Positions 13,836 to 42,858 of a stretch of DNA of 64,000 bases are shown in pieces; within the stretch, counting starts at the first letter, position 1, and each line of letters starts with the position of its first letter. The stretch is taken from NCBI GenBank assembly GCA_041645165.1, contig JBAZQN010000008.1, positions 2,374-66,373 of the forward strand, read 5' to 3'. Made by a program: the position numbers and the translations under genes. The notes under the pieces are model-generated. The model did not search any database and had not been told where the DNA came from. It saw only the letters and a program-made list of their open reading frames with translations. The stretch comes from Patescibacteria group bacterium. GTDB lineage: Bacteria; Patescibacteriota; Patescibacteriia; 2-02-FULL-49-11.

Positions 13836-13856
13836 GGCGCGTCAAAATTAACAATA

Positions 13857-15590: not shown

Positions 15591-15651
15591 GGGTTTGGTA
15601 TAGACGTTATGTTGTATATATTATACCATAGAATATGACGTTGCGCATGAG

Positions 15652-16038: not shown

Positions 16039-16724
16039 GCGATCATGAGCCGTATCATTATTTTAATGAAATTTCGATTGGCCACGACTCAAGCGTTATG
16101 ATAGGGCGCAAATATGAGGAAGGTTATGTTTTTACGAGACGGGGGCCGCACATTATGCGACAGGTGCGCTCGGTAAGAGTTTCCATAGGCTCCTTTCAAT
16201 TATCAAGCGAGAATCGTCGGATCTTGAAAAACTATGCTTTCCTTAATCTCCATTATGAAGCACTGCCTTATCCAGGCTATCATTGGACAATTGGAAAAAT
16301 TGCAGTTGATTTTTATAAAAAGAAAACGGGCTCACGCGCCATGAGCGCCCAGAAAATAAAGACCCTATTCACCTCGCCTCATGAAAGCATGAATGGCGTT
16401 TTTATATATCAATGGAAACAAGTAGAACGCCCTCTCGGCTACAGCCTTCTTTTTTCATCTGCGCGTATGCTTCATTATGCGTATCCTTTTTACGACGTGG
16501 CACATGCACGCGCATTAACGCTTCCTTCCTTGGGAATGGCAATGATGCTCAAGGCGATCCTTTGGGCGCAAGAAAAAAATATGGACTATGTATATCTGGG
16601 AAGTATCCACAATGAACGCTCACTCTATAAATTTCAGTTTAAAGGAGTGGAGTGGTTTAATGGTAAAAAATGGCAGCAGGGGAAACCTGAAAAATCCCAA
16701 ATCCAAATTTCAAAGTTCAAATAA
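16035..16724 (+). CDS. Arginyl/leucyl-tRNA--protein transferase-like protein (ATE1/Bpt family, ATE_C-like).
   Basis: C-terminal DYVYLGSIHNERSLYKFQFKGVEWF resembles the ATE_C motif (YLGYYI...YK..F.P.E.L). The start is probably the internal Met at 16035. The last ~11 codons are read from a repeat element. Confidence 0.4.
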   Translation: MSDHEPYHYFNEISIGHDSSVMIGRKYEEGYVFTRRGPHIMRQVRSVRVSIGSFQLSSENRRILKNYAFLNLHYEALPYPGYHWTIGKIAVDFYKKKTGSRAMSAQKIKTLFTSPHESMNGVFIYQWKQVERPLGYSLLFSSARMLHYAYPFYDVAHARALTLPSLGMAMMLKAILWAQEKNMDYVYLGSIHNERSLYKFQFKGVEWFNGKKWQQGKPEKSQIQISKFK

Positions 16725-25441: not shown

Positions 25442-26854
25442 ATGGTAATGCATAAAAAACAAGTTGATTTTTCTAAAGTGTCCAACATATATTTTATCGG
25501 CATAGGCGACGAATTTTGTGCTGCAATAGCCGAATGTCTGCATCATTGGGGGAAAAAAGTCAGCGGTTCCGATACAGTGGCAAACGCGCGCACTGCGCAT
25601 CTTTCCCAAATAGGAATAATGTGCCATATTAGTCCGTCACAATCCTTTGTCCCCGTACACACTGATATGGTCATTTTTTCACCGCGTGCGCATACGCACC
25701 CTGATGTCCTTAACGCCAAGCACTGGGGATTGCCTTTACACACTCCCTATGAATGTATCGGATTCATGAGTACGATCCGCACCACCATAGCAGTATCCGG
25801 CTGCCATGGCAAAACTACGGTGGCGGCTTACATAGGTTCGCTGCTTGAAAAAGCGGGTCGCGACCCAAGCGTCGTGGTAAGGACCGATGTTGACGCCTGG
25901 AAAAGCAATGTGCGCACCGGTTTCGGCAGTTATTTTGTGGTAGAAGCCGATGAGAATAAGAAGCATTTCCTTTCGCTCGTTCCCTCGATAGCGTTGTTCC
26001 TGAACATAGAACCGGATCATTTGGACTATTTTGAAAATATACAAAATATCATCAATGCATACCACGCCTTTGCGAAAAATGTAAAACGCGATGGCGCGGT
26101 TATCGCCAATGGCGATGATGAAAATATCATAGCTGCACTTAAAAAAGTTAATAACCGCATTATTTGGTTTGGCCGGCGTGAAGGCGTCGACGTGCGAGCG
26201 TTGAACGTGCAGTCGACGCGAGGACGCACTTCTTTTTCCGTGCACATCAAAAAGGGTGAGCACGATGAAGAATACCATATGGAACTGCCAGGCGAACACC
26301 AGCTTACTAATGCGCTTGCCGTTATTGCCACCGCTCATTATCTGGAGATTCCTTTTAATCTTGCACGTGAAATACTCCTTTCCTACCATGGCGCCAATAG
26401 GCATGTAAGCCTTATAGGAAAGGCAAATGGCATCGATGTTATAGATGACGCAGCAGATTATCCATCAACCATTAAAACTGTTCTTAAAGGCATTAAAGAA
26501 CAATACCCGGATAAGCCTCTTTGGTGCATATTCCAAGCCTATGGCAAAAAACGCACAGACTTTATGCAGGATGAGCTCGCACAAGCTTTTACCCATGCAG
26601 ACCATGTGATTCTTCGCCCTGTGAAAATGAACGATGAGGAAAGAGGCGGGGTTTCGTCTTCTCATAACCTAATCCACGCGGTCAAGGCGTATCATCCATT
26701 GGTAACCGACGGTCAAAATGACTATACATTGGCAAAAATTCTGGCTCAAATTCCTTCTAGTGCCGTATTGGTAACCATGGGCGCAGAACCGGTGAGAAGC
26801 GTAGGCGAGCATTTCTTAAAGCTTAGGCAGAAAAAACACAGTGTAGATACTTGA
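25442..26854 (+). CDS. murC: UDP-N-acetylmuramate--L-alanine ligase MurC (Mur ligase family).
   Basis: IYFIGIGDEF...SGSD N-terminal domain and P-loop AVSGCHGKTTVAAY. Position after murG. Confidence 0.75.
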   Translation: MVMHKKQVDFSKVSNIYFIGIGDEFCAAIAECLHHWGKKVSGSDTVANARTAHLSQIGIMCHISPSQSFVPVHTDMVIFSPRAHTHPDVLNAKHWGLPLHTPYECIGFMSTIRTTIAVSGCHGKTTVAAYIGSLLEKAGRDPSVVVRTDVDAWKSNVRTGFGSYFVVEADENKKHFLSLVPSIALFLNIEPDHLDYFENIQNIINAYHAFAKNVKRDGAVIANGDDENIIAALKKVNNRIIWFGRREGVDVRALNVQSTRGRTSFSVHIKKGEHDEEYHMELPGEHQLTNALAVIATAHYLEIPFNLAREILLSYHGANRHVSLIGKANGIDVIDDAADYPSTIKTVLKGIKEQYPDKPLWCIFQAYGKKRTDFMQDELAQAFTHADHVILRPVKMNDEERGGVSSSHNLIHAVKAYHPLVTDGQNDYTLAKILAQIPSSAVLVTMGAEPVRSVGEHFLKLRQKKHSVDT

Positions 26855-26891
26855 ATATCGCATTAAAAGGTGTACACTATTTATTATTAAC

Positions 26892-28301
26892 TTGTCGAAT
26901 CATAACTTATACGATATGAAAAAAAGAAATTTGCGGAAATTTTGGAAATTGGGGAATGCCGACTATGCCACGAAGCATTTTGACGTGAATAAAGATGGCG
27001 AGCTTATCGTGCGCGAGGGTAACTATCAATATAATGTCAAAGATTTGTGCGATCGTTTTGGCACATCATTGGAGCTGTTATTTCCCCACGTGATTGAAGA
27101 GCGTCTTAACGAAACATTTGACGCGTTCCATGCGGCGATGCGAGCGCAGCGCTATCGGGGAAAATTTTTTTTCCATTACCCTATGAAGGCGAACCAAACG
27201 AAAGAATTTATACTTCCCGCTGTTTCAGAAGGCGCCCATCTTGAAACGAGCTCGGCGAATGAGCTCTGGATTGTCAAACGTATGTGGGAACAGGAGCAAT
27301 TTTCCACTAAAATAAAGGTATTGTGCAACGGTCCGAAAACCAATAAATATTTATCTTTGATTGAGGAATTGAAGCTCAAGAATTTGGATATTGTTCCCAT
27401 CGTAGAAAATTATTGGGAGTTTGAATATCTCCGTAGCTACCGCGGCGATATTGGCATCCGATGGGCACCTACCACCCGTATACGCTCACATTGGGACAAG
27501 CCGACCGATCAATTCGGTTTTCCCACTAAGGATTTGATCGGGCTTGGGAAGATAAGAAATCTCAAATTAATGAGTTACCACGCTGCCTCACAGGTAACGA
27601 GCGCACAAGATTTGATTACGCTTGCACGCGAGGCAATGGGGGTATACCTGCGGGTGAAGAAGAATAATCCAATGCTCGATGCGCTGAATATTGGAGGAGG
27701 GTTTGCCGTGCCGTATGAAAAGAAGAAAAAAATATACACTGTACAACAAGTAGCTCCGCGTATCGTACGGACGATTAAGTCTGCCGCAGAGCGCGGTGGG
27801 GTGCCACATCCGGATATCATTGTCGAGTGGGGACGGTATCTTATGGCACCAGCACAAATCACTGTTTATAAAATCATCGCCGAGAAAGAGATAGCCATCA
27901 ACGGTCATTCCAGGGATTCAAAACACTGGTACTTTATTGACGGAAGCATTATGAATGATTTACCGGATACCTGGGGAGTAAACCAGCGTTGGCATGTAAT
28001 TCCGATTAATTATATGGATGCAGTAAAATTATCACGCGTCTGGCTATCCGGATCAAGCTGTGATTCGGACGATAAGTACACCAATGGCGGTGAATGCGTT
28101 CGTTTACCGCGCCTGCAGGATCTGCGAGAAGGTGAGCCATTGTATGTAGCGGTGCTTGATACGGGAGCCTACCAGGATGCACTGGCGAGCCTTCATTGTA
28201 TGCTTTCAAGCCCTGAAAAACTCGTAATCCAAAACGGGGTTATCACTGTTGCGTGCAAACGCGATACGCCAGAAGAAGTGGGGATGAAATTTGGGTGGTA
28301 G
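26892..28301 (+). CDS. Fold-type III PLP-dependent decarboxylase (Orn/DAP/Arg decarboxylase family); arginine decarboxylase suspected from context.
   Basis: HYPMKANQ (PLP-Lys, cf. YAVKAN), NIGGGF and SGSSCDSDD (cf. the CGPTCDSxD substrate loop). Neighbours are agmatine-pathway genes. Confidence 0.6.
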   Translation: MSNHNLYDMKKRNLRKFWKLGNADYATKHFDVNKDGELIVREGNYQYNVKDLCDRFGTSLELLFPHVIEERLNETFDAFHAAMRAQRYRGKFFFHYPMKANQTKEFILPAVSEGAHLETSSANELWIVKRMWEQEQFSTKIKVLCNGPKTNKYLSLIEELKLKNLDIVPIVENYWEFEYLRSYRGDIGIRWAPTTRIRSHWDKPTDQFGFPTKDLIGLGKIRNLKLMSYHAASQVTSAQDLITLAREAMGVYLRVKKNNPMLDALNIGGGFAVPYEKKKKIYTVQQVAPRIVRTIKSAAERGGVPHPDIIVEWGRYLMAPAQITVYKIIAEKEIAINGHSRDSKHWYFIDGSIMNDLPDTWGVNQRWHVIPINYMDAVKLSRVWLSGSSCDSDDKYTNGGECVRLPRLQDLREGEPLYVAVLDTGAYQDALASLHCMLSSPEKLVIQNGVITVACKRDTPEEVGMKFGW

Positions 28302-28357
28302 TGCGCTCGGTTTTCATACCATCATGGCGTGTCATAAAAAAGAACAGTAGAGGAAAT

Positions 28358-29014
28358 TTATGAAGTTATGGACTTAATAACCGAAAAAGCTTGGTCTACA
28401 TCAGTATTCATGAAAAACATGTTTAATTCCCAGCCAATTGATATGACTTCGATGACACCTATTCCATTCCAGGCCAATGCTTTCAGTATTAAATAATACA
28501 CATCTGGTGGAGAAGTAAGGGTCATTTTTGTTGATAGTTTTATGGTGATTGAGGATAGATCTTTTACTTTTACTACATTCTTCTGATTTTTTAAGATTTT
28601 TTCTACATCTTTTTCTAATTCACTGCTTACGATAATAGTCGCTTCAGTAAGCCCTACTGATATATTGAAAAATGTATCTTTTTTATTCTCTGTCTTTTTC
28701 AGAATCTCTTGGTGTATATTGATAACACTCGGAGAATTGAGAAACATAAATTCGACAAGATTTGAGCGTACGGTAATGTTCTTTGAATCCTTCAATACTT
28801 CTACATTGGAAGTTGGCGGCTTTAATTTTCTTTTGATTCGGTGGAGGGCCATAGCTACCGCCTCCTCGGAAATTTCTTCGAGCAGTTTTTTCTCTATTTG
28901 AGGGCGCAGTTGCCTCGCTACTCCGGAAATATTTACCATATCTGCATACAGCACCTCCGACAAAAAGGGCGAACGGTCGATAAGGTCTTGTACAACTTGG
29001 GAAATGGTTGTCAT
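28358..29014 (-). CDS. Hypothetical protein (possible tandem ACT-like regulatory domains).
   Basis: No firm motif. A beta-alpha-beta-beta-alpha-beta pattern is suggested by alternating hydrophobic stretches. Confidence 0.25.
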   Translation of the reverse strand: MTTISQVVQDLIDRSPFLSEVLYADMVNISGVARQLRPQIEKKLLEEISEEAVAMALHRIKRKLKPPTSNVEVLKDSKNITVRSNLVEFMFLNSPSVINIHQEILKKTENKKDTFFNISVGLTEATIIVSSELEKDVEKILKNQKNVVKVKDLSSITIKLSTKMTLTSPPDVYYLILKALAWNGIGVIEVISIGWELNMFFMNTDVDQAFSVIKSITS

Positions 29015-29134
29015 GTTGGAATTATAACAATGTGTGATAATTTTGTCAATATTGTTATAAAATTTGCTTAATATAGTGAATCCTTATAAACTGTGCGTAG
29101 TTCTTTAAAATATGTTTAATTTAAGGAGATTTTC

Positions 29135-29737
29135 ATGGAAGGTTTCAGAGCGATCGTAGGCCCACTAGCGGGCGCGTTAGCAGCATTCGCAATCGCCCGA
29201 TATATATGGGCGATTTTCCAGACGATGAGGCTACCGTCTGGACAGAGAGTCACGCCGAACCGCGTGACGTGGGGAGTAATCTCTGTTATTGGCTGGACCT
29301 TTCTAGCCAATAACGTAGCTATGGGGGCGACCTACACTCTGTGGCTACCCATGGTGTACGCCATGGGACCAACAATAGTCGCTCTGATCTCAATCCGACA
29401 TGGGGTTGGAGGGCGAGATAAGAATGACATCGTTGCCGGAACCATCGCAGTATTAAGCCTTATACTGTGGTGGTGGCTAGGCCTTTCGGCGGGATTCGCC
29501 GCCAACTTGATGGCCGACATTGCGGCGATCTACCCGACCATCAGGAAGGCCTACCGTCAACCCGGAACGGAAGACCGCACAGCATGGGTGTGCACAACCA
29601 TTGGCTGCGTGATCAACCTGATGGCGGTTCCTGCTCCCTGGTCGGGAGTAGGTGCCTACGCTGCCTATCAGGTGGTCGCAAACGGGACCATCGCGGTTCT
29701 CGCGTTGCGACGCAAAAACGTGAAAAATACCAGCTAA
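29135..29737 (+). CDS. Hypothetical polytopic membrane protein; GC-rich (high-50s %) compositional outlier.
   Basis: About 6 hydrophobic helices. GC is clearly above the window average. Confidence 0.4.
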   Translation: MEGFRAIVGPLAGALAAFAIARYIWAIFQTMRLPSGQRVTPNRVTWGVISVIGWTFLANNVAMGATYTLWLPMVYAMGPTIVALISIRHGVGGRDKNDIVAGTIAVLSLILWWWLGLSAGFAANLMADIAAIYPTIRKAYRQPGTEDRTAWVCTTIGCVINLMAVPAPWSGVGAYAAYQVVANGTIAVLALRRKNVKNTS

Positions 29738-29859
29738 GTCTTTTAGACCTCGCTGGTATTACATTTTCAGGTAAGCAATTTTCCCCTAGATTTTGAAATT
29801 GATGAAGATTTTTGTTATACTGAGACTATCATTTGTTTAAACAATAATACAGAGGCCAT

Positions 29860-31119
29860 ATGAGATTAGGCGAATATCCAGCGCAAGATGTGAGAGATAT
29901 TCTTCTGCGTGCTCAGCAGGGGACTGAAGTCGTACTCACCCCTGATTCGAGATCATTAGTAGATTTTCACGCTCTCCTCATAAAAAAATTTAGACCCGGT
30001 GAAGTTGAGCCTCTTGAAGTTTTTCAGGATGAGATGAGCCGCAATCAAAATCAGGATTCAAATGTGCGCTTTATCGGTGTTGTAGCAAGAGATCCTTTAA
30101 ATAACGAGGTAATAAGCGGCGCGTATGGTTCTGTGCAAGACGGTATTTTGGCAATACGTTTTACTTTAACTGAAGGAGACGAGTATCTTGGTACCCCTGC
30201 TACTGAACAAGCGGAAAAACAAGGATACCAAGGCTTCAGTGCATATCGTAGTACTGGAGTAAGTCAGTGGGTGGATGAGCTTCTTGTAGAAGTAGCACGG
30301 GAGCAACAGAAACTAATGAATCCTGAAAAGGATTTAGTTGCGTTGGTGTGTGAAGCGGTACCAAAATCTCAACATTATTGGAATAAGTTAGAAATAGAGC
30401 CGGGTAATGGGATGAGAAGACTGTACAAGCCAGAGTCAGGAGAAGAAGTGCATTATGAATTGCCTCCACTTGCTTGGAATAAAGATGGTACGCCTGCTCA
30501 GGAAGGTATTACTGAGCATCTTCAAATCGCAGTAAAAGGCCACCAAGACAGTGTTCTCGTGTCAGAATTAGAAAAAATTCTGAAAGATTGGTGGAAAGCG
30601 TGGTATATTCGCCCACGAGACCAGTTTGAGAGCAATGAGGCGTGGGAGCTTCACAAAAGAACAGTCTGGAATATTCTTGAAAATAATATTATTGCTCCAA
30701 TACGCGACGCCGGAGAATTAAAATTAATAGCAAATGCAATTACAAGAAGCGAGCTCCCAAAATCAAGGCGTATTAATAGTTTAGATAAAGTTGTAGTTGG
30801 CGAAATTCTCTCAATCTCAAATCACCCGTATGCAAAAAGAATTCGAATTGCTCGAGTTAATGTCGGTGAGGAGACATTGCAAATAATATTTGGCGGACCC
30901 AATATTGGGAAAGTGGGTGACAAGGTGGCTGTGGCCTTGCCGGGAACTATGACTGACCATGGCAAATTAAAACCACAACATTTCCGACAAGAAGCTTCCG
31001 AAGCAATGATATGTTCTGCGGTTGAATTAGGATTTGTTGAAGGGGGTCCTGATGAGATTTTGATTCTTTCACATGATTCAAAGCCTGGTGCGTCCATATC
31101 AAAGCCGGAAAATGGATAA
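29860..31119 (+). CDS. Hypothetical protein with a C-terminal tRNA-binding OB-fold domain (CsaA/Trbp111/EMAPII-like).
   Basis: C-terminal VVVGEILSISNHPYAKRIRIARVNVGEETLQIIFGGPNIGKVGDKVAVALPGT matches the tRNA_bind domain found in MetRS/PheT/CsaA. The N-terminal ~300 aa has no recognisable family. Confidence 0.5.
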   Translation: MRLGEYPAQDVRDILLRAQQGTEVVLTPDSRSLVDFHALLIKKFRPGEVEPLEVFQDEMSRNQNQDSNVRFIGVVARDPLNNEVISGAYGSVQDGILAIRFTLTEGDEYLGTPATEQAEKQGYQGFSAYRSTGVSQWVDELLVEVAREQQKLMNPEKDLVALVCEAVPKSQHYWNKLEIEPGNGMRRLYKPESGEEVHYELPPLAWNKDGTPAQEGITEHLQIAVKGHQDSVLVSELEKILKDWWKAWYIRPRDQFESNEAWELHKRTVWNILENNIIAPIRDAGELKLIANAITRSELPKSRRINSLDKVVVGEILSISNHPYAKRIRIARVNVGEETLQIIFGGPNIGKVGDKVAVALPGTMTDHGKLKPQHFRQEASEAMICSAVELGFVEGGPDEILILSHDSKPGASISKPENG

Positions 31120-31191
31120 GAAACCCTAAAATAATGTTATGTCTATTTCTCTTGACCTTTCACCACCGCAATATTCCGACAGAAGTGGATT

Positions 31192-32337
31192 GTGATCACA
31201 AGCGATTTAATTCTAAACTTATGCTATATGAATAAAGCAAAACTCAATAAACTATCTCATGGGCTCAAACAGTTGATTATCCAGGAATCAGGTGCTGGAA
31301 AAGTCGCTAAAGGCACATTAAGCGATTATATAAAACGAAGCAAAACGCCGGTAGTGGCATTAGCCGAGCGAACCTTAAATCATTGCAACGCAGGCGCCAC
31401 GCTCCAGGCTGCCCAATGGTTGAAGCAACATGTGGAAAATGGAGGCAAAATAGTAGTAACAATTGCAGGCGCACTTAGTTCATTTCAAATCGGCGTTATG
31501 CTCGCGGAGCTTATCCGGAAAGATAAAGTGCATCTTATATCAGCCACCGCCGCCAATCACGAAGAGTCTTATTATCGCTATGTCGCGCATTCGCACTATG
31601 CGTATATTCCTCGTTATACGGAATTAACCCCAGAGCAGGAAGCAGAATTGCGCGATGCGGGATTGCGGCGCATTACCGACACGTTTCTTCCGGAAGACGA
31701 GAGCGTCCGCATCATGGAGCCGCATTTGGTGAAAATGTGGAAAGAAGCGCAGGCGAAGGGCGAGCGTTATTTCCCCCACGAATATTTCCGTCGGTTGTTT
31801 GAGAAAAATCTTATTAAACCCGATACAGGCGCGAACCCTGACGATTGCTGGGCGTATGCGGCGTATAAAAAAAATATTCCCATTGTTATTCCGGGATTCG
31901 AAGATTCCACCATGGGTAATATTTTTGCGAGTTATACTTATGGCGGTAAATACCGTTTGAACAAAGATCCGCTTTTTGACCCCCACATCATCAAGACCGG
32001 CCTTGAATACTTTACCTGGCTCTACGAATGGTACATGGCGACTGCCAAAAAAAGCTCTCTCGCGTTTCTTCAGTTAGGCGGAGGCATTGCGGCTGATTTC
32101 CCCATCTGTGTCGTGCCGTCATTGATACATGACCTTCAGCTGCACGGGAAAGTCCGCCCCTGGGCGGGATTTATTGAAATTGGCTCTTCCCCAATGTCCT
32201 ACGGTTCGTACTCCGGCGCCGGTGGCAAGGAGAAAATCACCTGGGACAAACTTACTCCTGAAAGTTATTATCAGATCATCCAGAGCGACGCCACGGTCGT
32301 CTTCCCCTGGATTGCCGCAGTCTTGCTGGATTTATAG
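31192..32337 (+). CDS. Deoxyhypusine synthase-like (DHS-like) protein.
   Basis: Blocks align by eye to eukaryotic DHS: VVTIAGALSS...ISATAANHEES (cf. VTTAGGVEED), IPIVIPGFEDSTMGNIFASYTY (cf. [22 protein letters not shown]), LGGGIAADF (cf. LGGGVVKHH), GSYSGAGGKEKITWDKL (cf. GSDSGARPDEAVSWGKI). Confidence 0.6.
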   Translation: MITSDLILNLCYMNKAKLNKLSHGLKQLIIQESGAGKVAKGTLSDYIKRSKTPVVALAERTLNHCNAGATLQAAQWLKQHVENGGKIVVTIAGALSSFQIGVMLAELIRKDKVHLISATAANHEESYYRYVAHSHYAYIPRYTELTPEQEAELRDAGLRRITDTFLPEDESVRIMEPHLVKMWKEAQAKGERYFPHEYFRRLFEKNLIKPDTGANPDDCWAYAAYKKNIPIVIPGFEDSTMGNIFASYTYGGKYRLNKDPLFDPHIIKTGLEYFTWLYEWYMATAKKSSLAFLQLGGGIAADFPICVVPSLIHDLQLHGKVRPWAGFIEIGSSPMSYGSYSGAGGKEKITWDKLTPESYYQIIQSDATVVFPWIAAVLLDL

Positions 32338-32422
32338 ACTTTGAATTACCCAAAGTAATGCACTTATTTGTATAAAATACCAATTCGACTCAGCTCACTA
32401 TGACATGAATCGCGAAACGTAA

Positions 32423-32758
32423 ATGACATCAGAAATCGCTTTAAAATTTATTTTCTTTGGCTTAATCGTCCTAGCGGTTGCTCTCGAAGTGACCGGTGAT
32501 ATTTTTTTCAAAAAATGGTCTATTGACAGTAGAAACGTTTTACTTTATTTTGGCCTTTTGATTTATTTTATTGGAACCATTTTTTGGGCGATTTCGCTGA
32601 AATATGAATATTTATCAAAAGCAATCTCTGTATTTACTGTTTTGAATTTAGTTATTGTTGCTCTTGTGGGCGTTCTCTATTTCAAAGAAGATTTGTCTTT
32701 GATAAATAAAATTGGAATCGGGTTAGGAATTTTGAGTGTTGTTCTTATTGAAATTTAA
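32423..32758 (+). CDS. SMR-family (EmrE/MdtI/MdtJ-like) small multidrug/spermidine exporter; low GC.
   Basis: 111 aa with 4 TM helices and a conserved Glu in TM1 (LAVALEVTGDIFFKKW). Confidence 0.6.
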   Translation: MTSEIALKFIFFGLIVLAVALEVTGDIFFKKWSIDSRNVLLYFGLLIYFIGTIFWAISLKYEYLSKAISVFTVLNLVIVALVGVLYFKEDLSLINKIGIGLGILSVVLIEI

Positions 32759-32768
32759 TGTGACAAAC

Positions 32769-33623
32769 ATGAGCAGTCAAAAAATTAAAATAGGCCTTGT
32801 GCAGATGCGCTGCAGTGAAAATAGCGTTAAAAATCTGGCTCATGCGATCGAGGAGATTAAGAAAACAGCGGACAGTGGCGCACAAATAGTATGTTTGCCA
32901 GAATTTTTTTTATCGAAATATTTTTGCCAAGGGCCGAAAGATGATAAAAATTTCAAACTAGCGGAACCGATTCCCGGACCGACCACTGAAGTGCTGGGGA
33001 AGCTCGCGCTTCAATATAAAATAGTCATACTCTGCTCATTGTTTGAACAAGCTGACAGAGGCAAATATTTTAATTCCATTGCGGTTATTGATACGCAAGG
33101 CAAAATCGCTGGTGTTTACCATAAAATGCACATTCCTTCAATCCCGTCGGGGCTTTACTCGGAGGATTATTATTTTCATAAAGGCGATAAAGGAGTCATC
33201 GTAGTTGATACGCCTTACGGTAAAATCGCGCCGTTGATTTGTTACGACCAATGGTTTCCCGAACTTGCGCGCATTGCAGCGGTGAAGGGAGCTCAAATCA
33301 TTTTTTATCCGACTGCCATTGGATGGCCGCACGATAATCCAAAATGGAAAAGACAAGCCGAACATGAAGCCTGGCAGATAATCCAACGCAGCCATGCAAT
33401 TGCCAATAATGTGTTTGTAGCGGCGGTCAATAGAATTGGCGTAGAGGGGGATCTGAAATTTTGGGGAACGTCGTTTGTAAGCGACCCGTATGGAAGAGTG
33501 ATTACTATGGCCGCAACAGACAAAGAAGAAAATGTGGTAGTGGAATGTGACTTAACTTTAATAGACAAAATGAGAAAAGATTGGCCCTTTTTGAAGGAAA
33601 GGAGAATTATGTGTGAAATTTAA
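32769..33623 (+). CDS. aguB: Carbon-nitrogen hydrolase; N-carbamoylputrescine amidase (AguB)-like.
   Basis: IKIGLVQMRCSENSVKNL...GAQIVCLPEFFLSKYFCQ closely resembles AguB N-termini. CN-hydrolase Glu/Lys/Cys (ICYDQWFPE) triad context. Confidence 0.7.
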   Translation: MSSQKIKIGLVQMRCSENSVKNLAHAIEEIKKTADSGAQIVCLPEFFLSKYFCQGPKDDKNFKLAEPIPGPTTEVLGKLALQYKIVILCSLFEQADRGKYFNSIAVIDTQGKIAGVYHKMHIPSIPSGLYSEDYYFHKGDKGVIVVDTPYGKIAPLICYDQWFPELARIAAVKGAQIIFYPTAIGWPHDNPKWKRQAEHEAWQIIQRSHAIANNVFVAAVNRIGVEGDLKFWGTSFVSDPYGRVITMAATDKEENVVVECDLTLIDKMRKDWPFLKERRIMCEI

Positions 33624-33696
33624 TTGTCAAATAAAGGTACATTATTTTCACGATCGTGAAAATAATTGCTCTTGTTAAAAATAACTCAATACCGAT

Positions 33697-34710
33697 ATGA
33701 GATATTTTATGCCGGCGGAATGGGAGCCTCATAAGGGTACGTGGATTGCCTGGCCGCATAACCGCGATCATTGGCCCGGTAAGTTCGATTCCATCCCTGG
33801 AGTTTTCGCTGAAATAATACAAAAACTTACAAAAAGTGAGAAAGTTTTTTTATTGGTGAACGACGATGCAATGGAACAAGAAGCTCGCCGTATATTAAAT
33901 GAAAAGAATACTTTAATGTCGCAGGTTGAATTTGTACAGATTCCCACGAATACCTCTTGGACGCGCGATTACGGTCCAATTTTTATCCGCGATACGCAGG
34001 GTAAATTAAGCGTTATGGATTGGATCTTTACTTCATGGGGAAATAAATATCCGCCGTTCGATCTTGATGATATAGTCCCGAAAAAAATATGTCAGCAATT
34101 CGAATTTTCGCTTATAGAGCCGGGCATAGTACTGGAAGGCGGGTCCATAGACGTAAACGGGAAGGGATCGTTATTGACTACCGAACAATGCCTTTTAAAT
34201 AAAAATCGCAATCCGCAGCTCAACCGCACTCAAATTGAAGTTAATTTAAAAAAATATCTCGGCGCTTCGAATATTTTGTGGCTAAAGCGGGGGATTGCGG
34301 GAGACGATACGGATGGACACATAGATGATTCAGCGCGATTTACAGATCCGTCGACTATTGTATGCGCCGTGGCGGAAAGCACAGATGATCCCGATTATGA
34401 TGTATTGCGGCATAATTATGAAGATTTAAATAAATTTCGTGATCAAGATGGAGAACCTTTTAGAGTAATTCCATTTCCAACCCCTGACCCCGTGATATAT
34501 GAAGGTCAAAGGCTTCCGGCGAGTTACATAAATTTTTACATCGCAAATAAGAGTGTACTTTTACCTACCTTTAGGTGTAAAAAAGATCAAGAAGCGCAGC
34601 GTATACTTCAAGAGCTTTTCTCCACTCGTTCCGTTATTGGTATAGATTGTACTGATCTTATCTGGGGTCTGGGGGCCATACATTGTTCAACGCAGCAGCA
34701 GCCTTTATGA
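33697..34710 (+). CDS. aguA: Agmatine deiminase (AguA; PAD_porph family).
   Basis: MPAEWEPHKGTWIAWPHN N-terminal hallmark and the C-terminal GLGAIHCSTQQQP catalytic Cys motif. Confidence 0.85.
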   Translation: MRYFMPAEWEPHKGTWIAWPHNRDHWPGKFDSIPGVFAEIIQKLTKSEKVFLLVNDDAMEQEARRILNEKNTLMSQVEFVQIPTNTSWTRDYGPIFIRDTQGKLSVMDWIFTSWGNKYPPFDLDDIVPKKICQQFEFSLIEPGIVLEGGSIDVNGKGSLLTTEQCLLNKNRNPQLNRTQIEVNLKKYLGASNILWLKRGIAGDDTDGHIDDSARFTDPSTIVCAVAESTDDPDYDVLRHNYEDLNKFRDQDGEPFRVIPFPTPDPVIYEGQRLPASYINFYIANKSVLLPTFRCKKDQEAQRILQELFSTRSVIGIDCTDLIWGLGAIHCSTQQQPL

Positions 34711-34861
34711 GCCATTTTGTCTGAAACGGCTCGAATGAATAGCTTAAATAATGAAATATAAATTACCTATCGTACATGGCGGTTTTTTTGTTTTTATGGT
34801 ACTCTGTGAGTGAAATTATTGATTAATGAGCCATTTGGCGCGAAATGGCTTGATTATAAAT

Positions 34862-37624
34862 ATGTCACTATTAACTAAAATTTTTGGCGACCCAAACGAG
34901 CGTTTTATTAAGGAAGTAACCCCACAGGTTGAACGGATTAATTCGCTTGAAGCAGAAAATAAAAAGCTCTCTGACGACGCGCTGAAGGCAAAGACGCAGG
35001 AATTTAAGGGCCGCGTTGAACAGGGCACCACGCTTGATGATTTATTACCAGAAGCCTTCGCCGCCGTGCGGGAAGCGGCGGGACGCACTATCGAACAACG
35101 CCATTTTGACGTGCAGCTCATTGGAGGCATGGCGCTTCACCGTGGCATGATCGCGGAAATGAGGACAGGAGAAGGAAAAACATTGACTGCCACGCTGCCT
35201 TTATATCTCAATGCGCTCGCAGGGAAAGGCGCTCATTTGGTCACAGTCAACGATTATCTTGCGCGTCTGCATGCGTCTTGGATGGGAAGGGTATATCATG
35301 CGCTTGGTCTTACCGTAGGCTGCACACAGCAGCAGTTAGTGTCGTATATTTATGATCCGGAAGCAAAAAAACAGGAAATCCCGAAAGACGGATCTGATGC
35401 CGAGGAAAAAGAAATTGCACGATATACCGTTGACATGGATTTTCTACGTCCCGTCACCCGTAAAGAGGCTTATGCGGCGGATATCACCTATGGCACGAAT
35501 AATGAATTCGGATTCGATTACCTGCGGGATAACATGGTAGGGGATCTTGCGGAAATGGCGCAGAGAGAATTGTGCTATGCCATTGTCGACGAGGTGGACT
35601 CTATCCTTATTGATGAGGCGCGCACGCCTCTTATTATTTCCGCTCCCGCGGAGGAGTCCGGTGATTTATATTATAAATTTGCCGATCTGGTTACGACGCT
35701 TTCCGAAGGCCCTGATTATAACGTGGATGAAAAAATGCGCACTGCAACGCTTACCGAGGAAGGCGTTCATAAAATGGAACGCGCGCTTAATATCACCAAT
35801 CTGTACGCGGAAGGAGGCTTAAATCTCGTGCATCATCTGGAGCAGGCGCTCCGTGCGCATGCGCTCTTTAAGCGCGACCGTGATTATGTGGTAAAAGACA
35901 ATGAAGTCATCATTGTGGATGAATTCACCGGCCGGCTCATGTTTGGGCGCCGTTATTCAGAAGGGCTCCATCAGGCCATTGAGGCAAAGGAAAAAGTGGA
36001 GATACAGCGCGAATCGCGTACGCTTGCCACGGTGACCTTCCAAAACTATTTTAGGCTTTATAAAAAACTCGCGGGCATGACAGGCACTGCAGTGACAGAA
36101 GCGGAAGAATTCCATAAAATATATAACCTTGATGTGGTATCGATCCCTACCCACCGCCCGATGATCCGCAAAGATTTGCCAGACCGGATTTACAAATCGG
36201 CAAATGGTAAATGGCAGTCAATAGTACAGGAGGTTAAAGTGCGCCATGAATCTGGACAACCAATTCTCATTGGCACGGTCTCCATTGAAAAAAACGAGCA
36301 TTTGTCGCATTTGCTTTCACTCGAGGGCATTCCTCATAACGTATTAAATGCTAAACGCCATGAAGAAGAGGCAAGATTCATCGCGCAAGCGGGAAAACGC
36401 GGTAGCGTGACGGTCGCTACAAATATGGCAGGGCGCGGCGTAGACATTATTTTGGGCGGCAACCCGCCGGCGGCAGATGAGGCGGCGCTCATTAAAAGCT
36501 TGGGAGGACTCCATGTGATCGGCACTGAGCGGCATGAAGCGCGGCGTATTGATAACCAACTGCGCGGACGTGCGGGACGCCAAGGCGATCCGGGATCGAG
36601 CCAATTTTTCCTTTCCATGGAAGACGACCTTATGCGCATTTTCGGTTCAGACCGCATGAAAGGGCTGATGGAGCGCATGGGTATGCCTGAGGACATGCCC
36701 ATTGAGAACCGCATGGTCTCCAAATCAATCGAATCAGCACAGAGGAAGGTGGAGGGACATAATTTCGACATCCGTAAACATTTAGTGGAATATGACGACA
36801 TTATCAATAAACACCGCGAAGTTATTTATAAAAAAAGAAGGGAAATACTCAACACTACCCAATCGCCTGACCCTTCCGCAATATCAAAAATACTGCTGAA
36901 TATGATCGAAGAAGAAATAAGCGCCGTGGTACTGTTTCATACCTCCGCACAAGCGACAGACGAATGGAATCTTGATGAGATTTATGAAACGGTTGATAGC
37001 ATTGTGCCCTTGCCGTTACAATCAAGGATTAAGATAGATGAGATACATGACGTTAAAAGTGAAAAAATGGGCGATGCGCCAAAACGAACGGCCATTGTGG
37101 GCTACCTCATGGGGTATGTTGAATCGCATTTTAAGGAATTAGAGACAAGCATAAATATCGCACTAAAATCTCCTGTATTCATAAATATCGAACGGGGCAT
37201 TCTCTTGCGCGCGATTGACACGCTTTGGATCGAGCATTTGGATGCCATGGATCACTTACGTACCGGTATTGGCCTGCGCGGGTATGGCCAGCGTGATCCT
37301 TTGGTGGAATATAAGCGGGAGTCATACCGTATGTTTACTGAATTGCTCACCGCCATTAGAAAAGAAGTGGTGTACTCTATTTTCAAAATCGGCGCTGCCC
37401 AGCGATTTGCGCAAAGCACGCTAGCGCGCGAACAGCCAATGATACTTTCAGGGCCTGCAAAAGAAATGGAACGGGCGCGCGCGGCCTCACAAGCGCAAAA
37501 CGCCGCCATATCAAAAACCACTTCATTTAATGGCAAAAAGGTGGGACGCAACGATCCCTGCCCATGCGGAGCAAAAAAACTAGATGGTACTCCGATAAAG
37601 TATAAGCACTGCCATGGGAAGTAG
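34862..37624 (+). CDS. secA: Preprotein translocase ATPase SecA.
   Basis: Start MSLLTKIFGDPNERFIKE, DEAD motor motifs (MRTGEGKTLTATLP, VDEVDSILIDEARTPLIIS) and a C-terminal Zn finger CPCGAKK...HCHGK. Confidence 0.95.
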   Translation: MSLLTKIFGDPNERFIKEVTPQVERINSLEAENKKLSDDALKAKTQEFKGRVEQGTTLDDLLPEAFAAVREAAGRTIEQRHFDVQLIGGMALHRGMIAEMRTGEGKTLTATLPLYLNALAGKGAHLVTVNDYLARLHASWMGRVYHALGLTVGCTQQQLVSYIYDPEAKKQEIPKDGSDAEEKEIARYTVDMDFLRPVTRKEAYAADITYGTNNEFGFDYLRDNMVGDLAEMAQRELCYAIVDEVDSILIDEARTPLIISAPAEESGDLYYKFADLVTTLSEGPDYNVDEKMRTATLTEEGVHKMERALNITNLYAEGGLNLVHHLEQALRAHALFKRDRDYVVKDNEVIIVDEFTGRLMFGRRYSEGLHQAIEAKEKVEIQRESRTLATVTFQNYFRLYKKLAGMTGTAVTEAEEFHKIYNLDVVSIPTHRPMIRKDLPDRIYKSANGKWQSIVQEVKVRHESGQPILIGTVSIEKNEHLSHLLSLEGIPHNVLNAKRHEEEARFIAQAGKRGSVTVATNMAGRGVDIILGGNPPAADEAALIKSLGGLHVIGTERHEARRIDNQLRGRAGRQGDPGSSQFFLSMEDDLMRIFGSDRMKGLMERMGMPEDMPIENRMVSKSIESAQRKVEGHNFDIRKHLVEYDDIINKHREVIYKKRREILNTTQSPDPSAISKILLNMIEEEISAVVLFHTSAQATDEWNLDEIYETVDSIVPLPLQSRIKIDEIHDVKSEKMGDAPKRTAIVGYLMGYVESHFKELETSINIALKSPVFINIERGILLRAIDTLWIEHLDAMDHLRTGIGLRGYGQRDPLVEYKRESYRMFTELLTAIRKEVVYSIFKIGAAQRFAQSTLAREQPMILSGPAKEMERARAASQAQNAAISKTTSFNGKKVGRNDPCPCGAKKLDGTPIKYKHCHGK

Positions 37625-41047: not shown

Positions 41048-41139
41048 GAGGGGATGGGGAGGTCTCCTTTGGAAAAAGGTGAACTCTAGGTACTTTTTTG
41101 ACTTTTTTAGAGATTTTGATACAATGCGTAAGGATTTCT

Positions 41140-42858
41140 ATGACTAATAAACAAAGGCTTTGGATGTATGTAGGGCTCATCATAGCGCTCTTTTTAATTG
41201 CACTTATTTTTGCCGCGCCTAAACTCCCCACTGCGGTTCCCGCGGCTTCTTTTTTTGCTAAATTTCCTTATAAATTAGGCTTGGATCTCAAGGGAGGCGC
41301 CCACCTTATTTACCAAGCAGACACCTCGCAAGTGCCCTTTGCAGACAAACAATCCGCAATCAACGGCGTCCGCGATGTAATCGAACGGCGGGTCAATGCG
41401 TTCGGCATTTCAGAACCTCTGGTGCAAACTAACCAATCAGGCGATGAATACCGCGTCATTGTGGAGCTTGCAGGCGTATTTAATGTTGATGAGGCGATAA
41501 AACTTATCGGAGAAACTCCGTTGCTTGAATTTAAAACGCAAAACCCCGTAGCGGATGCACCGCTTACTGAAGAACAAAAGCAACAGCTTATAAAAGATAA
41601 TGAAACAGTCCTGAAGAGCGCTCAAGAAGTACTCGTGCAATCACATGCACCCAATGCTGATTTTAGCGCATTGGCAAAACAATATTCAGAAGACCCTGGA
41701 TCCAAAGAGCAGGGAGGGGATTTAGGATGGGCAAAAAAGGGAGTATTTGTGCCTGAATTCGATAAGGCGATTTTTGAAACCCTTAAAGCAGGGGAAACCA
41801 CCAAAGAATTAGTGCAAACCCAATTCGGCTACCATATTATCAAAAAGATTGAAGAGCGCGAGGTGGAAGGCGCGGCGAAAGGTGAACCGGAAAAGGAAGT
41901 CCATGCCGCGCATATACTCCTCCGCACCATCGCTGAACAAGATATCTCATCTCAAGTTGACCCGTGGGTTAATACCGCGCTCTCGGGAAAACAACTTAAG
42001 CGCGCCAGTGTTCAATTCAACTCACAAACAGGGGAACCGAATGTCAATCTGGAATTCAATGATGAGGGATCGAAACTTTTTGCGGAGCTCACCGGCGCCA
42101 ACATCGGCAAACCTATTGCTATATTTCTTGACGGGCAGGCAATTTCAGTGCCTACGGTTCAGGAAAAAATTGAAGGCGGCAGCGCAGTCATCACCGGGAG
42201 GTTTAATATAAAAGAAGCCCGCACGCTCGCAGAACGCCTCAATGCGGGCGCGCTGCCCGTCCCCATTCATTTGATTGCGCAAACCACCGTAGGCCCCACC
42301 CTCGGTTCTTTGTCTTTAAACCAGAGCCTGCGCGCAGGTATGATAGGAATACTTATCGTAATGTTATTCATGATATTGTACTATCGTTTACCCGGCATCA
42401 TCGCTTCGTTCGCGTTATTGCTCTATGCGAGCATCGTACTTGTTCTTTTTAAACTCATACCCGTGACACTCACGCTCGCAGGCATAGCCGGCTTTATCCT
42501 TTCAGTGGGCATGGCAGTTGACGCGAATATCCTTATTTTTGAGCGTCTCAAAGAAGAGCTAAAAGCGGGAAGGGACCTGCCCACGGCCGTTGAAGAAGGC
42601 TTTAAACGCGCGTGGACCTCCATCCGAGATTCGAATTTTTCGTCTCTCATCACCTGTGCGGTCCTTATGTGGTTTGGCAGCTCTGTCATCAAAGGTTTTG
42701 CAGTTACCCTGATCATCGGTATTCTTTCATCCATGTTTACCGCCATTACCGTAAGCAGAACCATTTTAAAGGCAATCGCCTTAACCGGAGCGAAGAGGCA
42801 TTTATGGATGTTTGGTTACCACCGCATTGAGACTAAGAGTGGCGATATGAAAATGTAA
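41140..42858 (+). CDS. secD: Protein-export membrane protein SecD with an embedded PpiC/parvulin-type PPIase domain.
   Basis: SecD blocks (LGLDLKGGAHLIYQAD; ...GKPIAIFLDGQAISVPTVQEKIEGGSAVITG; 6 C-terminal TM). The inserted ~90 aa carry ...FSALAKQYSEDPGSKEQGGDLGWAKKGVFVPEFDKAIFETLKAGE...FGYHIIKKIE, the parvulin signature. Confidence 0.75.
   Translation: MTNKQRLWMYVGLIIALFLIALIFAAPKLPTAVPAASFFAKFPYKLGLDLKGGAHLIYQADTSQVPFADKQSAINGVRDVIERRVNAFGISEPLVQTNQSGDEYRVIVELAGVFNVDEAIKLIGETPLLEFKTQNPVADAPLTEEQKQQLIKDNETVLKSAQEVLVQSHAPNADFSALAKQYSEDPGSKEQGGDLGWAKKGVFVPEFDKAIFETLKAGETTKELVQTQFGYHIIKKIEEREVEGAAKGEPEKEVHAAHILLRTIAEQDISSQVDPWVNTALSGKQLKRASVQFNSQTGEPNVNLEFNDEGSKLFAELTGANIGKPIAIFLDGQAISVPTVQEKIEGGSAVITGRFNIKEARTLAERLNAGALPVPIHLIAQTTVGPTLGSLSLNQSLRAGMIGILIVMLFMILYYRLPGIIASFALLLYASIVLVLFKLIPVTLTLAGIAGFILSVGMAVDANILIFERLKEELKAGRDLPTAVEEGFKRAWTSIRDSNFSSLITCAVLMWFGSSVIKGFAVTLIIGILSSMFTAITVSRTILKAIALTGAKRHLWMFGYHRIETKSGDMKM

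Follow-up and report, generated by a model that had tools for sequence, protein, structure and literature searches.

The interval from position 26,892 to 34,710 of the window, the whole 64,000-nucleotide stretch of DNA analysed here, probably encodes a homospermidine module of the agmatine-dependent ('SpeY/diagmatine') type. The host is a candidate-phyla-radiation (CPR) bacterium, Peregrinibacteria-like. In the proposed route, the short SpeA-like PLP enzyme would convert arginine to agmatine. The enzyme related to deoxyhypusine synthase (DHS) would then use NAD to oxidise one agmatine at its primary amine, hold the 4-guanidinobutyl group on K341 (human K329) and pass it to a second agmatine, giving N1,N9-bis(guanidino)homospermidine (G44G, diagmatine). 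The AguA-like iminohydrolase would turn both guanidino groups into carbamoyl groups, and the AguB-like amidase would remove these from the resulting bis-carbamoyl-homospermidine to leave sym-homospermidine. Two accessory roles are possible: acylation of the polyamine or an intermediate by the GNAT-fold protein encoded just upstream of the DHS-like gene, and export of a cationic product by the small SMR/DMT protein.

Gene content and conserved linkage

The preliminary description had listed five polyamine-type genes. All five are present where it placed them, on the plus strand, but three more genes inside the interval had been left out (Table 1).

Table 1. Genes of the interval (positions in the window)
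Product	Position	Strand	Remarks
Short SpeA-like arginine decarboxylase (putative)	26916..28301	+	461 aa; alternative TTG start 26892
218-aa protein, no assigned function	28358..29014	-	Sub-threshold profile matches only
200-aa polytopic membrane protein, no assigned function	29135..29737	+	No Pfam/NCBIfam match
GNAT-fold and tRNA-binding protein	29860..31119	+	419 aa; Pfam tRNA_bind 48.7 bits
DHS-like NAD-dependent enzyme	31228..32337	+	369 aa from Met13; ORF opens 31192; Pfam DS
Four-TM SMR/DMT-superfamily protein	32423..32758	+	111 aa; Pfam EamA and Multi_Drug_Res
AguB-like carbon-nitrogen hydrolase	32769..33623	+	Likely start Met12; ORF opens 32736; CN_hydrolase
AguA-like guanidino-group iminohydrolase	33697..34710	+	Pfam PAD_porph 415 bits

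The decarboxylase matches Pfam Orn_Arg_deC_N with 76 bits (E 2.9e-21), and its top NCBIfam models are SpeA (189 and 175 bits, versus 116 for LysA). Its best PDB matches are the arginine decarboxylases (ADCs) 3NZQ, 3NZP and 3N2O of E. coli, C. jejuni and V. vulnificus. The ADC match is split in two and leaves out SpeA residues 379-485 (the four-helix bundle); this insertion is the only SpeA feature absent. The protein carries the motifs YPMKANQ, GGGF and SCDSD, and the gene caller gives the same length in L002, a contig of the same organism. By these comparisons, the protein appears to be a short ('ancestral') alanine-racemase-fold PLP arginine decarboxylase. A LysA identity was ruled out by the SpeA scores, the ADC structure matches and the SCDSD motif, and the arginine decarboxylase context proposed earlier stands, as does a polyamine module built on arginine decarboxylation.

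In other CPR contigs, genes closely related to the DHS-like gene adjoin a decarboxylase together with AguA/AguB or agmatinase. As this linkage is repeated, the clustering of the polyamine genes is not chance. AguA, AguB and a decarboxylase lie beside genes of the DHS-like lineage in L007/8, L012 and L013. Agmatinase takes their place in L003/4 (with a LysA-like decarboxylase), in L016 (with a SpeA-like ADC) and in L014, where no decarboxylase was detected. The linkage, which extends to a SpeD homologue in L001 and to fusions with arginine-type decarboxylases, speaks for the agmatine route. Against it, the close homologues in L005/6, L011 and L015 have no polyamine gene within 10 kb.

Two of the additional genes have no assigned function. 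The 218-aa protein shows sub-threshold similarity to DUF7523 and, at E 0.002, to an aspartate kinase C-terminal/ACT-like region; tblastn found no counterpart in related loci, and its gene is outside the conserved cluster. The 200-aa membrane protein gave no match in the Pfam and NCBIfam searches and occurs elsewhere only in L002.

The third additional gene encodes a protein with an N-terminal GNAT-fold part of about 290 aa and a C-terminal tRNA-binding OB domain (residues 311-411). A Pfam search with the N-terminal domain found no match. In the AF2 model (pLDDT 90.8, pTM 0.88), the top 50 PDB matches by Foldseek are all GNAT acetyltransferases (probability 0.97-1.0). Among 5.8 billion proteins, 32 belong to the GNAT-domain family, which has a conserved R-x-x-G-x-S-Q motif. 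It is a tiny, CPR-only, acyltransferase-like family and a recurrent partner of DHS-like/SpeY clusters: its members adjoin a DHS-like gene (L007), a canonical SpeY gene (L091) and an AR-fold decarboxylase gene (P0282), and in P0294 a member is joined to an ADI/DDAH-like domain. The protein shares with SpeG/BltD-type polyamine N-acetyltransferases the GNAT fold, the R-x-x-G-x-S motif and a gene position within a polyamine cluster, next to that of a small efflux-type protein. It differs from them in its extra helices and the fusion to a tRNA-binding domain; there is no sequence-level family match, and SpeG is a low-ranked structural match only.

The SMR protein matches Pfam EamA (37.4 bits, cut-off 28.2) and Multi_Drug_Res (31 bits, cut-off 23.7), with weak NCBIfam similarity to Qac, MdtJ and ArnF, and the TM1 glutamate is visible in its sequence (ALEVTGD). 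The SMR gene is not conserved in related clusters; in L005/L006 a full-length EamA transporter gene abuts the DHS-like gene. The protein is a plausible candidate for a possible exporter of cations, either polyamines or guanidinium compounds.

Catalytic site and substrate pocket of the DHS-like enzyme

The DHS-like protein matches Pfam DS with 110 bits (E 1.8e-31). All curated DHS and SpeY models give 55-73 bits against cut-offs of 300-500, including 67 bits on the eukaryotic/archaeal model TIGR00321 (cut-off 304) and 64 bits on the SpeY model NF002699 (cut-off 500). Among PDB entries, DHS structures match its AF2 model (pLDDT 87.8) best, at target-normalised TM-scores of about 0.67-0.77. With eukaryotic and archaeal DHS (PDB 1RLZ, 6XXJ, 7CMC) it shares the fold, the lysine-imine NAD-dependent chemistry and the catalytic lysine.

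This lysine had been thought missing or displaced, as the human motif GGGVVKHH reads GGGIAADF in the window protein. The motif exists, but its human counterpart is G282-H289 and holds K287 and H288 (the human sequence was checked and is identical to PDB 1rlz/9iex). The catalytic lysine of human DHS is Lys329, within SWGK (PMC7226451). In every alignment Lys329 falls on the lysine of ITWDKL, K341 in the window protein, and the next lysine 17 residues on (LHGKVRP), pointed out earlier, is irrelevant. All 126 close homologues carry the Lys329 equivalent, as do 103 of 108 more distant ones. Also retained in the window protein are the counterparts of T131, E136, E137, D238, G282-284, G314, E323, W327 and D342. 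With the lysine, E136/E137, D238, GGG, E323, W327 and D342 in place, the suggestion of a catalytically divergent paralogue fails. The substitution of human K287 and H288 by A and D might point to a dead or regulatory paralogue, but we regard this as highly improbable: across 234 lineage members, the catalytic lysine and nearly all NAD and catalysis positions vary little or not at all, and validated SpeY enzymes also lack H288, carrying N instead. The gene is evidently under strong purifying selection, judging from the best 120 of 7,926 homologues, which show 76-90% identity.

The enzyme thus appears very divergent yet catalytically intact, with a remodelled substrate pocket. The lineage signature, in human numbering, is D243N, K287A, H288D, H289F, N292C, D313Y and D316Y; D243 is replaced by N in 224 of the 234 members and D316 by Y in 226. 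In the human enzyme, spermidine is held at N1 by D316 and at N10 by D243 and N292, and E136/E137 contact putrescine (PMC7226451). The loss of both spermidine-anchoring aspartates from an intact catalytic core speaks for the agmatine route. In the agmatine-coupling Thermus CdmS/SpeY, both aspartates are replaced, by F204 and L286, and E293/K299 are kept (PMC10981699); canonical SpeY references have F and C/L at these positions. The window protein and SpeY/CdmS belong to the same DHS superfamily, conserve the equivalents of K329, E323, W327, D238 and GGG, lack both aspartates and the histidine at H288, are encoded with an arginine decarboxylase and agmatinase or AguA/AguB, and have the same rare GNAT neighbour. 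In L091 this GNAT gene lies directly upstream of a canonical SpeY gene (NF002699 574 bits, cut-off 500), as it does upstream of the window enzyme, which suggests a common function for both DHS lineages. Among the three options offered for the protein in the preliminary description, an agmatine-using DHS variant is the best supported.

There are also differences from canonical SpeY. The identity is only about 22%, D313 is replaced by Y, and the CPR sub-lineage has an N-terminal extension of about 45 aa. The pocket residues are N/Y/D/C rather than F/L(C)/N/D, and the likely counterpart of CdmS Ser67 is Ala; a different amine substrate is therefore possible.

A protein-modifying role, in which the enzyme places an aminobutyl-type group on a lysine of some protein (EF-P or a different translation factor, for example) and the polyamine genes merely supply the donor, seems improbable. 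It would accord with the intact catalytic Lys, E323 and W327, the DHS fold, the N-terminal extension and the tRNA-binding domain encoded next door. The DHS-like protein is also 79-81% identical between CPR genomes, whereas the neighbouring AguA and AguB are 41-47% identical. However, the lineage has lost the spermidine anchors D243, D316 and N292 and also the 'invariant' H288. No spermidine synthesis gene (SpeD, SpeE) and no EF-P gene was found within the window, and no eIF5A-type substrate is evident. The AdoMetDC-fold decarboxylase fusions (AdoMet_dc + DS in P0130, P0169 and P0126) and the synteny with agmatinase or AguA/AguB indicate small-molecule metabolism, and the lineage is abundant in Bacteroidota, where homospermidine is the major polyamine.

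Lineage relatives and the choice between agmatine and putrescine

Within the DHS family, the protein falls into a third, deep lineage with members in CPR and Bacteroidota. Bacteroidota members 44-48% identical to it are widespread and have an identical active-site signature. In Salinimicrobium (L050) and Flavobacterium spp. a short SpeA-like ADC gene lies directly upstream, with the order ADC, agmatinase, DHS-like in L050. These clusters contain agmatinase (L050, L036, L020) or no hydrolase nearby, in contrast to AguA/AguB in the window, and lack the GNAT partner and the SMR gene. Winogradskyella algicola SpeY, described in the same ADC-agmatinase-DHS-like cluster, makes G44G in E. coli (PMC13625781), a product that human and plant DHS do not make (PMC13625781). 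The assayed enzyme probably belongs to the Bacteroidota DHS-like lineage; this tie to the window lineage is by family-level synteny only, which would count against the agmatine reading.

The AguA-like and AguB-like proteins could serve either substrate. The AguB-like protein matches CN_hydrolase with 189 bits and carries the E/K/C triad motifs CLPEF, YHKMHIP and LICYDQW; Medicago NCPAH (5h8i) is among its best PDB matches. It scores 249 bits on TIGR03381 (aguB), under the cut-off of 410, and would be an amidase for either N-carbamoylputrescine or N1,N9-bis(carbamoyl)homospermidine. The AguA-like protein conserves the catalytic Cys in GAIHC and scores 303 bits on TIGR03380 (cut-off 382). Its best PDB match is the uncharacterised Chlorobium tepidum 1xkn (419 bits), with characterised agmatine deiminases at 206-219, and it is about equally distant (33-39%) from the plasmid-borne AguA homologues listed. 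Its predicted iminohydrolase substrate is agmatine or diagmatine. Diagmatine iminohydrolase (DIH) and the C44C amidohydrolase belong to the same families as the two window proteins, PAD_porph and CN_hydrolase; they too have the catalytic Cys and the E-K-C triad intact and are encoded near a DHS homologue. Sequence alone does not tell their substrate preference from that of canonical AguA/AguB.

The gene context fits both agmatine to G44G to hydrolysis and agmatine to putrescine to condensation, and cannot tell them apart. In the latter, ADC, AguA and AguB would make putrescine via N-carbamoylputrescine, and the DHS-like enzyme would condense two putrescines (or N-carbamoylputrescine or another diamine) to homospermidine, acting like bacterial homospermidine synthase (HSS) on a DHS scaffold. 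We consider this unlikely. The three hydrolytic and decarboxylating genes it needs are all there with intact catalytic motifs, the pocket is unlike that of canonical SpeY, and E136/E137 are kept where SpeY has D-M/Q. In L001 the enzyme is paired with a SpeD homologue, and a SpeD homologue from Peribacteria has proved to be an ornithine decarboxylase (PMC10407285); if that of L001 is of this kind, it would supply putrescine, not agmatine. However, every bacterial DHS homologue tested so far needs agmatine and makes G44G, and those AguA and SpeB homologues that were assayed from species with SpeY are inactive on agmatine (PMC13625781). Flavobacterium, of the same lineage, has sym-homospermidine as its major polyamine and almost no putrescine (PMC8570120), and both AguA and AguB fall short of their equivalog cut-offs. 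Bacterial HSS shares the predicted end product, but according to PMC13625781 it is not homologous to DHS and depends strictly on putrescine; DS is the sole Pfam match of the window protein. The flux from arginine through agmatine and N-carbamoylputrescine to putrescine, as first proposed for these genes, is probably not the main route, because SpeY-associated AguA homologues take G44G, not agmatine, as substrate (PMC13625781). The agmatine-dependent reading is thus the one we favour. The module is an unusual member of a pathway type described in 2024-2026, and its enzyme is neither broken nor new.

Gene content of the polyamine interval

Eight ORFs lie in the interval from 26.9 to 34.7 kb, compared with the five polyamine-type genes named in the preliminary description, and profile searches bear out all five (see the table). 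An identical gene order is present in a Logan assembly contig. Neither the 200-aa membrane protein nor the 218-aa protein has a counterpart in the other, related loci. No Rfam family was found at gathering score in the window, and none at E ≤ 1 in 26000-35000, when regulatory RNAs and riboswitches were sought. Genes for EF-P, SpeD, SpeE and Pot were absent among the window ORFs scanned, which for EF-P comprised most ORFs of at least 110 aa.

Features of the interval, with side observations from the rest of the window and from related loci
Sequence	Positions	Strand	Feature	Remark
Window	26916-28301		Alanine-racemase (AR)-fold PLP decarboxylase, SpeA-like	Profile searches
Window	28358-29014	-	218-aa soluble protein, no family assignment	Interrupts cluster between decarboxylase and DHS-like gene
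Window	29135-29737		200-aa membrane protein, no family assignment	Interrupts cluster between decarboxylase and DHS-like gene
Window	29860-31119		419-aa protein, predicted GNAT-fold N-domain and C-terminal tRNA-binding domain	Between decarboxylase and DHS-like gene
Window	31228-32337		DHS-family protein	Pfam DS 110 bits; start Met13 by homologues and gene caller
Window	32423-32758		SMR/EamA-type membrane protein, 111 aa	Profile searches
Window	32769-33623		C-N hydrolase, AguB closest	Profile searches
Window	33697-34710		PAD_porph protein, AguA closest	Profile searches
Window	33-1604		SufB/D-core protein	Inserted LAGLIDADG homing-endonuclease (intein-like) domain
Window	1790-2449		Second, shorter SufBD-core ORF	Follows the SufB/D-core protein at 33-1604
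Window	6792-15590	-	Type IV pilus set	PilM, PilN, pilin-like proteins with N-methylation motifs, T2SS-F platform protein, T2SS-E ATPase
Window	15999-16724		241-aa ORF just upstream of Mur ligase genes	Arginyl-tRNA-protein transferase C-terminal domain, weakly matched (E 1.2e-5)
Window	41098-42858		SecD	PpiC/parvulin-type peptidyl-prolyl isomerase domain between first P1 segment and P1 head
Window	49222-51207		TrwB/VirD4-like coupling protein	Zinc finger
L003 (relative)	14826-16241	-	LysA-like decarboxylase	Beside agmatinase; 306 bits vs LysA cut-off 298
L007 (relative)	12171-13109	-	Orphan gene, GNAT family	Within polyamine cluster
L007 (relative)	13338-14870		LysA-like decarboxylase	Beside AguAB
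L033 (Blattabacterium cuenoti)	9998-10975		DHS-like gene	Between RNase Y and lipoamide dehydrogenase
L091 (Patescibacteria)	8001-8903		GNAT-family member	Directly upstream of canonical SpeY
L091 (Patescibacteria)	9385-10413		Canonical SpeY	NF002699, 574 bits

The best PDB matches of the decarboxylase are three biosynthetic arginine decarboxylase (ADC) structures. It aligns with E. coli SpeA in two blocks (90-378 and 486-585), skipping the four-helix bundle at 379-485, and conserves the PLP-lysine motif YPMKANQ and SCDSD. Full-length SpeA models place it under their cut-off, as expected because it is a short form. A LysA identity, which the preliminary description had kept open, was rejected: TIGR01048 gives 116 bits vs 298, PDB diaminopimelate decarboxylases (DAPDC) give at most 63 bits vs 109 for SpeA, and the active-site motif, which is of the CESGD type in LysA, reads CDSDD. 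By its sequence the enzyme is SpeA-like and fits the short "ancestral AR-fold ADC" encoded in the clusters of SpeY (PMC13625781), the bacterial DHS homologue that couples two agmatines.

The AguA-like protein stays below the equivalog cut-offs (303 bits vs 382 with TIGR03380, plus 317 vs 483), reaches 415 bits with Pfam PAD_porph, and conserves the catalytic Cys (GAIHC). A comparison meant to sort it as DIH or AIH did not separate the two, since it is 33-39% identical to all plasmid-borne AguA homologues listed. Among known structures it matches 1xkn, an uncharacterised protein of Chlorobium tepidum, at 419 bits vs 206-219 for characterised agmatine deiminases, and it is 41-44% identical to AguA of related candidate phyla radiation (CPR) clusters. 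Its closeness to 1xkn may point to horizontal acquisition or to a subfamily of its own that could be specific for diagmatine. The AguB-like protein (TIGR03381 249 bits, below the cut-off of 410) carries the E-K-C triad motifs, and plant NCPAH 5h8i is among its best PDB matches. The small membrane protein passes the cut-offs of both EamA (37.4 bits vs 28.2) and Multi_Drug_Res (31 bits vs 23.7) and has four TM helices; the membrane-embedded Glu of TM1 can be read directly from the sequence (ALEVTGD). It is a predicted SMR/DMT-type small transporter.

Catalytic site and lineage of the DHS-like protein

The DHS-like ORF gives a significant match over nearly the full domain of Pfam PF01916 (110 bits, cut-off 27; residues 66-376 of 381, profile positions 12-286 of 288). 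Its AF2 model (pLDDT 87.8) retrieves only DHS structures among the top 50 PDB matches of Foldseek, all at probability 1.0 and with target-normalised TM-scores of about 0.67-0.77. The preliminary description had aligned human GGGVVKHH with GGGIAADF and read the catalytic lysine there as replaced. This was a mis-registration. Human GGGVVKHH spans residues 282-289, so that its lysine is K287; the reference sequence had been confirmed as identical to PDB 1rlz/9iex before aligning. The catalytic lysine of human DHS is K329, within SWGK (PMC7226451; PMC10981699). Its equivalent is the K of ITWDKL (K341 of the window protein), as found by phmmer against three PDB DHS chains and by both MAFFT alignments, in which the window protein and other members of its lineage were set against human DHS and three canonical SpeY passing the curated SpeY cut-off. 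Loss of the catalytic lysine is thereby ruled out.

The lysine is kept in all 126 close members of the lineage, which comprises DHS-like proteins of CPR and Bacteroidota, and in 103 of the 108 more distant ones. Across the 234 aligned members, little or no variation is seen at the equivalents of human T131, E136, E137, D238, G282-284, G314, E323, W327, K329 and D342. E137, D238, D313 and D342 are residues that we take, from human DHS mutagenesis, to form the NAD site; in the alignment E137, D238, D342 and the GGG loop are kept, and the position of D313 holds Tyr or Phe across the lineage. Because the lysine and the other positions of the first list are so conserved and the AlphaFold model matches DHS structures, the enzyme is very probably active. 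A dead paralogue, which a replaced lysine would have suggested, is extremely unlikely.

The predicted substrate pocket is remodelled relative to human DHS. In the human enzyme, D316 anchors N1 of spermidine, D243 and N292 anchor N10, and H288 lies near C5 (PMC7226451). In the window lineage D243, D316, N292 and the proton-shuttle H288 are replaced by N, Y, C and D, respectively, and these replacements are near-invariant, as is Y/F at D313. The agmatine-coupling SpeY of Thermus (CdmS) departs from human DHS exactly at D243 (F204) and D316 (L286) and keeps E293 and K299 (PMC10981699), and in our alignment the canonical SpeY references have F, C/L and K-N-F there. The window lineage thus resembles SpeY in that both acidic anchors have given way to uncharged residues, H288 is not His, and E323 and K329 are kept. 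The change is of the same kind but uses other residues, N and Y at the anchors instead of F and L/C.

All curated DHS and SpeY models score the window protein at only 55-73 bits against cut-offs of 300-500. The models of true, eIF5A/aIF5A-modifying DHS are not reached (TIGR00321 67 bits vs 304; others 56-65 vs 350-434). A protein-modifying enzyme, as the DHS fold might suggest, is very unlikely alongside the altered spermidine anchors. Membership in canonical SpeY was also rejected (NF002699 64 bits vs 500; NF001980 73 vs 450). SpeY genes taken as controls from Sphingomonas, Trichormus and one CPR genome reached 564-592 bits with the SpeY model, and 200-246 with archaeal-type DHS. Because of these low scores, and because identity is 22-24% to both SpeY and human DHS, sequence comparison assigns the protein to a third, deep DHS lineage.

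Searched exhaustively, 1.84 billion representative proteins yielded 1,069 relatives at E ≤ 0.001, and the lineage occurs in at least 597 genomes among GTDB species representatives. The closest homologues bear Peregrinibacteria/Peribacteria names, which places the organism within that part of CPR, and the 419-aa protein has an identical counterpart in an NCBI entry of a Patescibacteria group bacterium. At 72-79% identity are proteins from the MAGs L011-L016, three labelled Patescibacteria/Peribacteria and three with other labels; Absconditabacteria/SR1 members follow at 57%, and at 44-48% the relatives are mostly Bacteroidota, with Flavobacterium, Chitinophagaceae, Salinimicrobium and even Blattabacterium among them. 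The 0.64-Mb genome of the cockroach endosymbiont Blattabacterium cuenoti has kept its member. No phage homologues were found when these were sought. Some members are fusions (proteins P0126, P0130 and P0169) of an AdoMetDC-fold decarboxylase with the DHS-like domain; one joins AdoMetDC, an NNMT/PNMT-type amine N-methyltransferase and the DHS-like domain, which hints at N-methylated polyamine products. Because the Patescibacteria locus L091 encodes a canonical SpeY, CPR holds both DHS-like lineages. NCBI records name the members only generically, for example "deoxyhypusine synthase family protein", and a lineage of this breadth escapes every NCBIfam DHS/SpeY model tested, with all scores under cut-off.

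Recurrent neighbors and a CPR-only GNAT-fold protein

The gene context is also SpeY-like. In the window the DHS-like enzyme is encoded with an ADC and AguA- and AguB-like proteins, and comparable partners occur in related loci: a decarboxylase and/or agmatinase or AguA/AguB recur beside the DHS-like gene, in support of the cluster recognized in the preliminary description. AguA, AguB and a decarboxylase adjoin it in L007/8, L012 and L013. An agmatinase is the partner in L003/4 with a LysA-like decarboxylase, in L016 with a SpeA-like ADC, and in L014 with no decarboxylase detected. Flavobacteriaceae have a short SpeA-like ADC directly upstream, and the gene order in Salinimicrobium (L050) is ADC, agmatinase, DHS-like. 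A SpeD homologue stands beside the DHS-like gene in L001; no convincing SpeD-sized ORF was seen by eye beside that of L073, a Planctomycetota member. The LysA-like decarboxylases of L003 and L007, the former above the LysA cut-off, suggest that LysA-type enzymes were recruited as arginine decarboxylases in related CPR clusters.

Between the window and L007, L012 and L013 the DHS-like proteins are 79-81% identical, whereas identity is only 41-47% for the AguA and AguB encoded beside them, and the decarboxylases belong to a different subfamily. Judging from these identities, the core enzyme seems to have been passed on vertically under strong constraint, with its partners being swapped; either the core is unusually constrained, or the partners were exchanged by transfer.

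The N-terminal approximately 290 residues of the 419-aa protein had no match to Pfam or another sequence family. Its AlphaFold model (pLDDT 90.8) matches GNAT proteins in all of the top 50 Foldseek hits (probability 0.97-1.0). A search for a GNAT motif-A-like R/Q-x-x-G-x-G/A/S pattern found R-x-x-G-x-S-Q conserved in the family, with R130, G133, S135 and Q136 nearly invariant. The domain is therefore a predicted member of the GNAT acyltransferase superfamily. The family consists of about 30 proteins, and those with source names are all from CPR; a C-terminal tRNA-binding domain (PF01588) is fused to just three of them, the window protein and the two relatives nearest to it. The window domain is 39% identical (E 8e-59) to the orphan gene of the L007 polyamine cluster. 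Other members lie directly upstream of the canonical SpeY of L091 and of an AR-fold decarboxylase, and another is a fusion with an ADI/DDAH-like guanidino-modifying domain. Since the same rare GNAT partner accompanies canonical SpeY and the window-type enzyme, there is independent support for equivalent jobs of the two DHS lineages. The GNAT protein could acylate polyamines, perhaps coupled to the adjacent SMR-type protein.

Proposed route to homospermidine

We propose that the short ADC would convert arginine to agmatine, and that the DHS-like enzyme, using NAD and an imine at K341, would couple two agmatines to diagmatine (N1,N9-bis(guanidino)homospermidine, G44G) with release of NH3. The AguA-like enzyme would then convert G44G to bis-carbamoyl-homospermidine, from which the AguB-like enzyme would produce homospermidine. 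Homospermidine is a highly probable end product, and the agmatine-first order of steps is the one we favor as reasonably likely.

Several published results bear on this order. Winogradskyella algicola has exactly the cluster of ADC, agmatinase and DHS-like gene, and agmatinase-deficient E. coli expressing its "SpeY" formed G44G (Li et al., PMC13625781). Family-level synteny indicates that this assayed SpeY likely belongs to the window lineage. The W. algicola agmatinase is active on G44G and not on agmatine, AguA homologues turn G44G into bis-carbamoyl-homospermidine, and one AguA homologue associated with SpeY does not act on agmatine (PMC13625781). The major polyamine of Flavobacterium is sym-homospermidine, with very little putrescine (PMC8570120). 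The main rival is a putrescine-first order, in line with the route from arginine through agmatine and N-carbamoylputrescine to putrescine read in the preliminary description from the same AguA- and AguB-like genes; next to these results it is unlikely. The observation of a polyamine cluster thus stands in part, without the lysine replacement, and its interpretation is partly supported.

A further reading combines the pocket and the GNAT protein. The lineage would be a third branch, specialised independently, and not a SpeY that evolves fast; the invariant residues of its pocket (N231, D290, C294, Y325 and Y328, window numbering) would select a non-agmatine amine, such as putrescine or N-carbamoylputrescine, and the CPR enzyme would work with the lineage-specific GNAT (here fused to a tRNA-binding domain), which would acylate the product or link polyamine chemistry to tRNA. 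The residues at the anchors differ from those of SpeY, and all bacterial DHS homologues tested make G44G (PMC13625781). We consider this reading quite doubtful. If true, selection of a non-agmatine amine would contradict the rule proposed for these enzymes, by which DHS homologues depend on agmatine and the bacterial homospermidine synthase (HSS) on putrescine.

Under the favored agmatine-first order, the window cluster is a strongly divergent representative of an already known pathway type, and the CPR-only GNAT family offers a new candidate for an accessory enzyme in polyamine metabolism. CPR bacteria would join the organisms likely making homospermidine by the recently described agmatine/diagmatine route. 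In these small, fast-evolving genomes, conservation of the DHS-like enzyme far exceeds that of its pathway partners, which suggests that either homospermidine or the enzyme as such is important to CPR.
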